A model generated the notes under the pieces. The model was not told the DNA's origin, ran no database searches, and saw only the letters and a list, made by a program, of their open reading frames with translations. Below, piece after piece: positions 1 through 6,002 of a stretch of 6,130 nt of DNA. This stretch comes from a virus (lineage: Duplodnaviria > Heunggongvirae > Uroviricota > Caudoviricetes), in IMG/VR virus record IMGVR_UViG_2648501390_000008. One strand, written 5' to 3'. Positions within the stretch are counted from its first letter, which is position 1; each line of letters begins with the position of its first letter. The position numbers and the translations under genes are program-made.

Positions 1-1039
1 CCTGAGGTCCGGTTGCCCCCACCGGGCCAGCCGCACCTGTTTCTCCTTTCGGTCCCTGTGGGCCTGCCGGACCTGCCGCACCGGTATCTCCCTTTGGACC
101 CTGTGGACCTGCATTTCCCGTCAGACCGGTCTCTCCCCGCTCTCCCCTGTCGCCTTTCGGCCCCTGCGGGCCTGCCGGACCAGCATCACCTGCCGGTCCC
201 CGCTCACCGGTTGCCCCGACAGGACCGGTGTCGCCACGCTCTCCTTTATCTCCCTTCGGCCCCTGTTCCCCCTTTGGCCCGGGAGGTCCCACCACGGTGG
301 GGATTCGGTTTACGGCCTCTTCCGCCGCTATCCTGCTTTGTTCCGCTGACTGTGCGCTTTCTGCTGACTCCCGGGCTTTTTCTGTTGCGGTCGTTGCATC
401 CCTGGCTGCATTACCGGCTGCACTTTCTGCCATCTTTTTTGACAACTCAGCATCTGTTGCACTTTGTAATGACTCACTGGCTTTTTGAGCGGCCGCAGAA
501 GCCGAGGACGAGGACGCATCCTCTGACTGCTTTGCTGAGGCTGCACTTTCCGTCGCCTGCCGGGCTGACTCCGATGCATCCCCTGCAGAAGTCTCAGCAT
601 TTACTGCACTCTTTTCCGCCTGGCCGGCTGATATACCCGCATTCCTCGCTGACGTCTCTGCCTCTCCGGCATTCTTCTTCGCCTCCTCAGCGTGACGCGC
701 TGCCTCTTCCACCATCAGTTCAAAACGTCGCAGTGCCTCCGGACGGGCATCATCCTCCGTCATGGCACCGAGAAAATCATTCAGCGTACCGGGTTGAGAA
801 TCTTCATACACGGTGATGGTCCCGGCATGTGACGGCGGGAATCCCTCCACCAACAGAATAACGCTGTACTGACCGTACTCAACGTCCATACTGTAACGCC
901 CGGCTTCATCCGGATTTTCTGAGGCCAGCGTGTTCACCACCACAGTGGTACTGTTACGTTTTGCTTTCAGCTGGATTGTGCAGTTCTGTACCGGTTTTCC
1001 TGTGCCGTCTTTCAGTACACCTGAAATCTTTACTGCCAT
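1..1039 (-). CDS. stf: Side tail fiber protein Stf, N-terminal ~346 codons; the 3' end of the gene lies beyond the left edge of the window
   Basis: Hand translation of the minus strand from the ATG at 1039..1037 gives [20 protein letters not shown]..., then ...[29 protein letters not shown]..., which matches the lambda Stf N-terminus as I remember it. The frame stays open through the segments I translated (1039..981 and 790..2), with the last full codon at 4..2; 980..791 was not translated by hand. The gene is absent from the ORF track only because it has no in-window stop. It sits downstream of lom, as in lambda. Confidence 0.9.
2..289 (-). repeat. Collagen-like Gly-X-Y coding repeat inside stf (at least 96 consecutive triplets, continuing past the window edge)
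   Basis: Hand translation of the stf frame gives [96 protein letters not shown] with Gly at every third position. At the DNA level this is an imperfect 9-nt periodic repeat (ggNccNNNN on the coding strand). Confidence 0.85.
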
Positions 1040-1050
1040 ATTCACCCCAC

Positions 1051-1076
1051 AAAAAAGCCCGCCTGAACCGGCGGGC
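1051..1076 (-). terminator. Rho-independent terminator downstream of lom
   Basis: On the minus-strand RNA: a 7-bp all-GC stem (GCCCGCC / GGCGGGC, plus-strand 1057..1063 pairing with 1070..1076), a 6-nt loop, then UUUUUU (plus-strand A-tract 1051..1056). It lies between the lom stop (1104..1106) and the stf start (1039). Confidence 0.6.
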
Positions 1077-1103
1077 TGTCATAACACTGTGTTACCTGGC
1101 TAA

Positions 1104-1703
1104 TCAGAATTTATAACCGACACCCACGATGAAACCGTCAGTGCGCCAGTCACCACTGCCGGAGCCTTCATAAGCAATATCAATGGCCACGGATTCGGTC
1201 GGGTTAAACTGCACGCCAGCCCCCCACGCCAGAGACGTGTTGCTGTGGCGACCGTCATCACTTCCGGTCAGCACATCGTGCGTTTTCCCCTTGTTGTCAG
1301 TTACGCGGAGATAATCCCCGGAGAAAGTCGACACACGGCTGTAAGCCACACCCGCCATCGCATACGCGCTGAACCATTCATTCACGCGTACAGACGGCCC
1401 CGCCATCACGCTGAACCAGCGGTTACGCACGGAATCTTCATGCCAGCGGGTATCGCTGTAACGGGTAAGCTGGCGATTCTTGTCTCCTGCATAGCTGAAT
1501 GACGTCACCAGCCCCAGCGTGTCCGTAAATTCATAACGGTATTTCACGTTAATCCCGTTAAGATTATCGCTACCGGGAGCGTTCGTCCGGGCATGAAGAT
1601 ACCCCGCGCTCAGTGTGGACTGATGTTCAGACGCCCATGCAGGCGCACCGGATACGGACAGACAGATGGCTGCGGACAAAATGGCTGCACAAACTTTACG
1701 CAT
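1104..1703 (-). CDS. lom: Lom outer membrane protein (Ail/Lom/PagC-family beta-barrel), 199 aa
   Basis: The ORF translation [59 protein letters not shown]...[10 protein letters not shown] is near-identical to lambda Lom from memory. It has a Sec-type signal peptide ending AWA-S and a C-terminal aromatic residue typical of outer membrane beta-barrels. RBS GAGAGG lies ~6 nt upstream of the ATG. Position between J and stf is as in lambda. Confidence 0.95.
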
Positions 1704-1727: not shown

Positions 1728-1751
1728 AAAAAAGGCACCATTTCTGGTGCC
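1728..1751 (-). terminator. Rho-independent terminator between J and lom
   Basis: On the minus-strand RNA: stem GGCACCA / UGGUGCC (plus-strand 1734..1740 pairing with 1745..1751), GAAA tetraloop, then UUUUUUAUU (plus-strand A-tract 1728..1733). It starts 22 nt downstream of the J stop (1773..1775) and ends 24 nt upstream of the lom ATG. Confidence 0.6.
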
Positions 1752-1772
1752 CTTATATGGGTTATAACAATT

Positions 1773-4700: not shown

Positions 4701-5270
4701 TGTGGTGCTGTCCGGCGTCATCCTGCGCATCCTGATACTGAACGGTCGCGGCGGCAGCTTATCCACCACCACCGAGGCCAGATACTGTGAGGTGGTTTTG
4801 CCCTTAATGGTGATGTCTTTTTCCGTCACCCAGCCACCATTACGTTGTATCTGAACCAGCAGGCGAACTTCCGACGGATTCCGGTCCCCCTTTGAAGTGG
4901 TTTCCACCAGTGCCTGCACACCGAAGGTCAGGCGCAGACGGTCGATGTTTGCCGACGTGATGGTCCGGGTGAGCGGATTGTCATATTTTAATTCTGCACC
5001 GATAACGGTTTCTGAACCGGAGGATTCAAATCCCTCCGGCGGTGTCTGCTCCTGCTCACCTGCCCGGAACACCACCGTGACGCCGGAGATGTTGGTATTC
5101 CCCTCACTGTCCAGCACCGGCGTACTGTTCAGCAGCACGCTTTTTAATCCATCTACCGGACCTTCAACCGGCCCTTCGCTGATGGCATCGATCACACTCA
5201 GCAACTGCGTGGACTTCAGGTTGTCCTTCGCTTCGCGCGGGGTATGCCCCTTACTGCTTCCTTTACCCAT
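1773..5270 (-). CDS. J: Tail tip / host specificity protein J (central tail fiber), 1165 aa, with a divergent C-terminal region
   Basis: ORF of 1165 aa beginning [34 protein letters not shown]..., matching the lambda gpJ N-terminus as I remember it; lambda-like through about residue 820. RBS GGAG...GAGGA upstream of the ATG. A 60-nt gap separates it from the upstream I gene, as in lambda. Confidence 0.97.
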
Positions 5271-5330: not shown

Positions 5331-6002
5331 TCAGCGACCAATCACCACAACCTGACCACCGTCCCCTTCGTCTGCCGTGCTGATCTCCTGAGAAACCACA
5401 CGTGATCCCACGCGCATTTCACCGTACAGAACGGGCAGAACATTGCCCTGGGCAACCATGTTATCCAGTGAGGAGAAATAGGTGTTTTGTTTGCCGTTAT
5501 CCGTTGTCTGTGTACGGGGAGTTCTGGCTTTCGGTGCCAGCATCTGGGCCACACCACCGAGCACCATACTGGCACCGAGAGAAAACAGGATGCCGGTCAT
5601 ACCACCGGCCCCAATGGCTGCCCCCCACGCTGCAAGGGTGGCTCCGGCAGTAAAGAATGATCCGGCAATGGCGGCTGCTCCCAGGACAATCTGGAATACG
5701 CCACCTGACTTGGCCCCGGCGACTCTGGGAACAATATGAATCACAGCGCCATCAGGCAGAGTCTCATGTAACTGCGCCGTTAACCCGGACGTGCTGACGT
5801 CCCGCCCGGCAATCCGTACCTGATACCAGCCGTCGCTCAGTTTCTGACGAAACACCGGGACCTGTGTGGACAGTGCGCGGATGGCTTCAGCCCCCGTTTT
5901 CACACGAAGGTCGATGCGGCGGCCAAATCGTTGCAAATCCCCGTAAAGGCAGATGCGTGCCATGCCCGGTGACGCCAGAGGGAGTGTGTGCGTCGCTGCC
6001 AT
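5331..6002 (-). CDS. I: Tail assembly protein I, 223 aa
   Basis: ORF translation MAATHTLPLASPGMARICLYGDLQRFGRRIDLRVKTGAEAIRAL... is near-identical to lambda gpI from memory, with the same length (223 aa). Its start overlaps the 3' end of K by 103 nt, as in lambda. RBS-like GAGAGG upstream. Confidence 0.97.
   Translation of the reverse strand: MAATHTLPLASPGMARICLYGDLQRFGRRIDLRVKTGAEAIRALSTQVPVFRQKLSDGWYQVRIAGRDVSTSGLTAQLHETLPDGAVIHIVPRVAGAKSGGVFQIVLGAAAIAGSFFTAGATLAAWGAAIGAGGMTGILFSLGASMVLGGVAQMLAPKARTPRTQTTDNGKQNTYFSSLDNMVAQGNVLPVLYGEMRVGSRVVSQEISTADEGDGGQVVVIGR

Follow-up and report, generated by a model that had tools for sequence, protein, structure and literature searches.

A side tail fibre gene with a collagen-like tract, very probably of the EPclA type, at the end of a lambda-like prophage contig

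EPclA (EHEC prophage collagen-like protein A; e.g. ECs2717 and Z0982) is the closest described relative of the fibre studied here (Ghosh et al. 2012, PLoS One 7:e37872, PMC3368898). It is a protein of 437 aa that consists of PfN, a coiled coil of 116 aa (PCoil), a collagen-like tract (Col), which is 111 aa long in most O157:H7 copies, and PfC, and it is found in seven to eight copies per O157:H7 genome (PMC3368898). In other strains the length of Col varies between 63 and 144 aa, and tract lengths differ by multiples of three (PMC3368898). Recombinant EPclA is a trimer in which PCoil forms an alpha-helical trimeric coiled coil with a Tm of about 52 C, and in which the Gly-X-Y tract truly folds as a collagen triple helix, as judged from its CD signal, with a Tm of 42 C and without hydroxyproline (PMC3368898). 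PfC brings about trimerisation and renucleates the triple helix, and by EM the molecule appears as a dumbbell with a stalk that is hinged between PCoil and Col (PMC3368898).

Other collagen-like proteins share part of these features. EPclB, phi24B gp61 and Sp5 ORF67 of the short-tailed Stx2 phages are likewise composed of PfN, coiled coil, collagen and PfC and are located in the tail, but they have two collagen tracts parted by a Pf2 repeat, are at least 645 aa long and belong to a podovirus tail. Streptococcal Scl1/Scl2 and Bacillus BclA also form bacterial Gly-X-Y triple helices without hydroxylation, for which a globular trimerisation domain at the flank serves as nucleator. Unlike the fibre studied here, these proteins carry signal or anchor sequences and belong to the cell surface or the exosporium, and outside the Gly-X-Y repeats they have no relation to it.

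The attachment of side tail fibres to the virion has been seen in Ur-lambda, where a collar at the gpV/gpM junction is built from twelve Stf N-domains (cryo-EM, PMC12617516). Flexible linkers join three N-domains to each trimeric coiled-coil fibre, which gives four fibres per virion and makes adsorption faster (PMC12617516). The tip of Ur-lambda Stf (orf-401 + orf-314; PDB 9E7M/9MGH) is T4 gp37-like, rich in His and binds OmpC, and the chaperone Tfa is encoded by the gene downstream.

The window, i.e., the whole stretch of DNA analysed here, is 6130 nt long and is the complete draft contig JHRB01000290.1 of GCA_001265265.1, as found by an exact-protein look-up of J, for which this contig was the only carrier. 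The edge of the window at which the fibre gene breaks off is therefore the end of the contig. According to the open reading frames and the Pfam families of the neighbours, the tail module on the minus strand has the order C40-peptidase (K-like) gene end, I, J, lom and stf (Table 1). The genes I, J and lom are intact, and the gene layout around stf matches that of phages 434 and cdtI. stf is preceded by this terminator-like hairpin between lom and stf, and its expression presumably depends on antiterminated late transcription; a second terminator-like hairpin with a T-run is found after J (1731-1754, minus strand). Compared over its whole length, the window reaches no more than 94.5% identity with any of the complete E. 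coli genomes of the collection. Identity rises to 97% for the stf part alone and up to 100% to phages for the last 264 nt, and such uneven identity along the window is the mosaic pattern that lambdoid tail modules usually show.

Table 1. Features of the 6130-nt window, with the evidence on which each assignment is based.
Feature	Position (nt)	Strand	Evidence
I	6002..5331	-	ORF list, neighbour families
J, central tail fibre / host specificity protein, 1165 aa	1773..5270	-	GpJ domain families
lom, Ail/Lom outer-membrane protein, upstream of stf	1104..1703	-	PF06316
Terminator-like hairpin with T-run between lom and stf	1056..1077	-	Terminator annotated at the same place in the phage 434 record
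stf, side tail fibre gene; 5' part (346 codons), truncated at the contig end	2..1039	-	ORF; DNA identity to annotated side tail fibre genes
PF08400 phage_tail_N (PfN), residues 1-133	641..1039	-	E = 4.8e-69, 231 bits
Collar (tail-attachment) domain, residues 1-94, within PfN	758..1039	-	PDB 9E7M/9MGH match, E = 1e-54
Ala/Ser/Glu heptad coiled coil (PCoil), ~residues 101-247	299..739	-	Heptad periodicity; EPclA homology
RIPTVV, residues 245-250, coiled coil/collagen junction, probable hinge	290..307	-	EM hinge of EPclA
Collagen-like (Gly-X-Y) tract, residues 251-346, runs into contig end	2..289	-	32 triplets; PF01391
Single CAGGGGCC copy, site of the 18-nt (two-triplet) deletion; all close relatives keep the 18 nt	258..265	-	Alignment
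Terminal stretch, 100% identical to phages 434 and cdtI, multi-copy in E. coli	1..264	-	Alignment invariant after the deletion
Antisense ORF, 267 aa, Pro/Leu-rich, no gene	13..816	+	Entirely within stf, opposite strand

The stf reading frame starts with an ATG at 1039-1037 and is open through nt 2 without a stop codon. The PF08400 match to the first 133 residues covers profile positions 1-133 of 134. Residues 1-94 match chain Ta of the 'Tail fiber protein' in the Ur-lambda cryo-EM structures. The original prediction had described the N-terminus as lambda-like, which agrees with the 91% identity (107/117) of residues 1-117 to lambda Stf (orf-401). After these residues lambda Stf diverges from the window protein. 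Lambda Stf has an Ala/Ser-rich shaft and lacks a collagen tract, both as stated in the prediction: it matches only PF08400, PF03406, PF07484 and PF03335 in Pfam, with no Collagen match, and contains no Gly-X-Y run of ≥4. We could thus reject the idea that lambda carries the same collagen tract.

Ur-lambda Stf resembles the window protein in its collar-forming N-domain followed by an Ala/Ser-rich trimeric coiled coil. It differs in that its coiled coil is much longer, in its Pf2 repeat, Collar domain and Phage_fiber repeats, and in having neither collagen nor PfC. The lambda-type distal shaft, with Pf2, Collar and a gp37-like tip with Tfa, is not what follows in the window, where the protein switches to collagen at residue 251, and in the full-length relatives the gene ends in PfC and is followed by an 89-aa PfC-like ORF, not by Tfa. 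By homology, the window fibre would attach to the virion as Ur-lambda Stf does, while its shaft and tip would represent a different module.

PfN is separated from Col by 117 residues (134-250), which include 34 Ala, 22 Ser and 14 Glu. This segment had been predicted as an Ala/Ser/Glu-rich region of low complexity, and the composition is indeed as described; the segment is however not featureless but a continuous heptad repeat. About 20 heptads of the form xSAxxAx follow each other in one uninterrupted register between residues ~101 and 247, and the power of the Ala/Ser signal at a period of 3.5 was not exceeded in any of 2000 shuffled sequences. The RIPTVV sequence at the junction to the collagen tract is probably a hinge between the two shaft segments, by analogy to the EM images of EPclA.

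From residue 251 Gly is found at every third position, in all 32 triplets and uninterrupted up to the end of the window, and the tract is thus as perfect as first predicted. The number of triplets is however three times lower than stated there: the at least 96 triplets that had been counted correspond to 96 residues, since the 288 nt between positions 2 and 289 encode 32 triplets. A search for the collagen triple-helix family, which had been proposed as a check, gave a match to PF01391 (Collagen) of 60.6 bits (E = 1.3e-16), well above the cut-off of 27.2, and phmmer against PDB gave strong matches of the collagen tract to animal collagen chains and BclA. With Gly at a frequency of 0.056 elsewhere in the protein, the probability of the periodicity arising by chance is p ~1e-40, and a compositional accident could be rejected on these grounds. 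Position X is occupied mainly by P (15 of 32), followed by E (6), D (5) and A (4), and position Y by T (7), A (7), K (6), Q (5) and R (4). The tract was expected to be rich in Pro, Lys, Glu and Gln; Pro does dominate, but Lys, Glu and Gln are no more frequent than Ala and Thr. The DNA of the tract is loosely repetitive, with one 45-nt unit in two copies of 82% identity found by Tandem Repeats Finder, and a repeat search on the plus strand gave 41-45-nt families with 60-85% identity at spacings of 9, 45, 54 and 99 nt.

At the DNA level, nt 1-1100 of the window have 97.5% identity to phage cdtI over the full length and 94.7% identity to the gene annotated as 'side tail fiber' in phage 434. Phages BP-4795, 2851, VT1-Sakai, lambda_2B8 and many Stx1/Stx2 phages have ~93-94% identity over the 1100 nt, and DNA matching the stf region is present in 4866 of the 5426 complete E. 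coli genomes, with as many as 15 places in one genome. Among the full-length relatives, the proteins of phages 434 and cdtI comprise 437 aa and that of E. coli 7_12_30A 440 aa; they have 37-38 triplets, followed by a C-terminal region of 64 residues with the PF06820 (PfC) domain (E = 6e-36). The proteins of phages 434 (UMO75288.1) and cdtI (BAF63353.1) are particularly close to that of the window, with the last 264 nt identical and with the same flanking lom gene and terminator. They differ by a few substitutions in the coiled coil and by two extra Gly-X-Y triplets, where the window reads GEQ-GPK.

The window shares with EPclA the order of the domains, with PfN first, then a coiled coil of similar length (~116-117 aa) and a single uninterrupted collagen tract, as well as the position in the tail module after J and lom. 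It also shares ~93% DNA identity with Sakai/EDL933-type copies, the Ala/Ser/Glu composition and the heptad pattern. It differs from EPclA in the collagen tract, usually of 37 triplets (111 aa) compared to 35 (105 aa) here if the ending matches that of the relatives, and this is because of an 18-nt deletion private to the window. The stf fragment is therefore very probably the 5' four-fifths (nt 1039..2) of an EPclA-type side tail fibre gene of a lambda-like siphovirus prophage, with the order PfN-PCoil-Col-PfC. The suggestion that collagen shafts exist in prophage tail fibres is confirmed by the same architecture in EPclA (Ghosh et al. 2012; PMC3368898). The finding is thus real but already known, as this type of fibre was described and biochemically tested in 2012 and is very common in E. 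coli prophages.

All relatives with full coverage span 1118 nt where the window has 1100, and the difference is a single block of 18 nt. In NZ_CP074845.1 (L005) the sequence reads GAA-CAGGGGCC-CGCGGGTCCT-CAGGGGCC-GAAG, while the window has GAA-CAGGGGCC-GAAG. The loss thus corresponds to one unit between perfect 8-nt direct repeats of CAGGGGCC and is in frame, leaving GEQ-GPK at the junction. A 44-nt probe across the junction had no full-length match in the 5426 complete E. coli genomes, and neither did a 70-nt probe. The window therefore carries a rare allele, or possibly an assembly error.

Comparable changes are found among the relatives, where the tract varies from 0 to 38 triplets in 120 cluster representatives. 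For the proteins of the PfC type, almost every shorter tract can be derived from that of phage 434 by a single in-frame deletion, at 0-4 mismatches, and the deletions comprise 9, 27, 45, 99, 108, 144, 153, 162, 189, 198, 207, 261, 288 or 297 nt. Most of the breakpoints lie within a recurring (A)GPQGPKGD motif and have a junction ambiguity of 7-11 residues. The comparison of copy number among relatives proposed in the original prediction thus showed that tract length varies through in-frame deletions at internal repeats, and the idea that the repeat is a substrate for slippage or recombination gains support from the 18-nt deletion in the window and from the repeat-bounded alleles elsewhere. The alignments support a change of tract length by in-frame deletion between internal repeats, for which slippage or recombination would be the mechanism. 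The position of the breakpoints at GPQGPKGD is a small addition to the published remark on multiples of three.

Deletion alleles are also seen in the coiled coil. Compared to the window, P0019, P0029 and P0048 lack 41, 28 and 63 aa, respectively, at ~residues 160-230, and these deletions are bounded by repeated motifs such as ESAA...ESAA. The 41 aa missing from P0019 are not a multiple of seven, and their loss would move the heptads out of register by one position, which does not fit the published rule that PCoil lengths differ by multiples of seven.

The 3' end of stf lies outside the contig. A 70-nt probe from the terminal region was found in a median of 8 and up to 12 places per genome in the 708 genomes with a match, and the multi-copy nature of this stretch is likely to be what broke the short-read assembly. 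The final 88 residues of the window protein recur unchanged in nine PfC-type cluster representatives, compared to matches at ~60 of the 88 positions in Shigella-type Peptidase_S74 proteins. From this identity over 264 nt and 88 aa, a PfC ending is likely for the window copy as well. In the relatives the 89-aa ORF right after stf, which would lie beyond the window edge, is a free-standing second PfC (PF06820, E = 5e-36), located at L002:6377-6646 in phage 434 and at L005:3086-3355 in E. coli 7_12_30A. The phage 434 record names it 'tail fiber assembly chaperone'. It is unrelated to lambda Tfa, and it may serve as a chaperone, as a subunit that co-assembles with the fibre or as an alternative tip.

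Several proteins from Shigella and E. coli (P0001-P0010, P0014, P0015, P0017 and P0037) have the same PfN/coiled coil/collagen front, but a Peptidase_S74 (PF13884) C-terminus and no PfC. The occurrence of both PfC and Peptidase_S74 (an intramolecular chaperone) after the same front suggests that fibre tips are exchanged as modules beyond the collagen tract. P0012 and P0013 (494 aa) represent another variation, in which an Stf with 26 triplets and PfC runs on, by way of a garbled linker, into the PfC-like ORF that follows; both resemble products of a frameshift or a fusion.

The shortened tract, the missing gene end and the role of the protein could each be read in another way. The 18-nt shortening could be an artefact of assembly or sequencing in a repeat-rich multi-copy region of a short-read draft. 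It is seen in a single draft assembly, its junction occurs in 0 of the 5426 complete genomes, and the contig ends 260 nt beyond it, within multi-copy sequence. We nevertheless consider an artefact unlikely, as the change is exactly in frame and located between perfect 8-nt direct repeats, and as many comparable in-frame length alleles are present in finished genomes; a repeat of 8 nt should moreover be shorter than the usual assembly k-mers. The stf copy could also be a defective remnant, frameshifted, truncated or fused past the contig end and unable to give a working fibre, as in the case of the stf of lambda PaPa. The gene end is indeed outside the window, frame-shifted or fusion homologues exist (P0012/P0013, P0083 and P0084), and 3 of the 15 EPclA entries in the O157:H7 strains EDL933 and Sakai, about one in five, are marked as defective (Ghosh et al. 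Table 2). Yet no stop interrupts the 346 visible codons, the last 264 nt equal those of the intact phage 434 and cdtI genes, and the neighbouring I, J and lom are intact, which makes a defective copy quite improbable.

For the C-terminus, another module such as the Peptidase_S74 of Shigella-type (EPclD-like) fibres would give the fibre a different tip and maturation. The top-scoring database proteins (P0001-P0004, 498 aa) do join the same front end to PF13884, but with the closer agreement of the last 88 residues to the PfC-type tracts described above, and with PfC at the end of all the closest DNA relatives, we regard this as very unlikely. Collagen-like proteins of Gram-positive pathogens act as adhesins, and the protein might likewise serve mainly as a bacterial surface adhesin or virulence factor, as streptococcal Scl does, without being part of the virion. 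One homologue of 486 aa from this enterobacterial fibre family (P0017) even bears the NCBI label 'collagen-like surface-anchored protein SclE [Streptococcus pneumoniae]', which is probably due to contamination or mislabelling. Such a role is hardly credible for a gene placed in the tail module after J and lom, whose product begins with the virion collar domain solved in Ur-lambda and has no evident signal peptide or anchor in the visible 346 residues; the related ORF67 protein was moreover seen on the tail of phage Sp5 by immuno-EM. The PfC-ended side tail fibre of EPclA type is thus the reading on which we base the following.

We propose that three chains would form one fibre and that each virion would carry four fibres. 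Residues 1-94 would dock in the virion collar, for which homology makes a strong case, and a short linker would lead to a trimeric coiled coil of ~145 residues with an Ala core, as shown for proteins that are more than 90% identical. The RIPTVV hinge would be followed by a collagen triple helix of ~35 triplets, 32 of which are visible, and by PfC outside the window, which would trimerise, nucleate the triple helix and probably carry the receptor-binding surface. For the proteins with more than 90% identity, the trimer, the collagen and coiled-coil conformations and the trimerisation by PfC have been shown by others (PMC3368898). The fibre would speed up reversible adsorption before J binds its receptor. 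According to the phi24B preprint, a related collagen shaft is flexible and unlikely to transmit a signal, and the fibres of lambda_2B8 do not recognise BamA.

The plus-strand ORF at 13..816 had been predicted to be just the antisense reading of the repeat. It lies wholly inside stf on the opposite strand and matched no Pfam family, and we rejected it as a gene. Similar antisense ORFs span the Ala- and Gly/Pro-rich part of stf in public phage records and are labelled as hypothetical proteins, e.g., orf22 of cdtI (L001:5752-6510, minus strand) and orf206b of lambda (L003:1348-1968, minus strand). The cdtI record also begins stf 50 codons too late, at locus position 5212 where it should be 5062.

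Fibres of the EPclA class are widespread in prophages of E. coli, Shigella and E. albertii, and beyond correct annotation another copy matters little. For annotation and assembly there are two practical consequences of these genes: the near-identical collagen/PfC segments of co-resident prophages break short-read assemblies, and the GC-rich repeat gives rise to antisense ORFs that are entered as hypothetical proteins in public records. One may speculate, as a doubtful though possible extension, that the collagen tract is a built-in module for length variation, in which the GPQGPKGD-coding repeats lead to frequent in-frame deletions, and presumably duplications, so that co-resident prophages would vary in fibre reach, with selectable effects on adsorption depending on the thickness of the O-antigen or capsule. 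If so, the private 18-nt deletion at CAGGGGCC in the window would be a fresh example of it. The phages that host these genes move Shiga toxin, Cdt and type III effector genes, and both the receptor of the fibre and the effect of shaft length on host range therefore bear on the spread of virulence.
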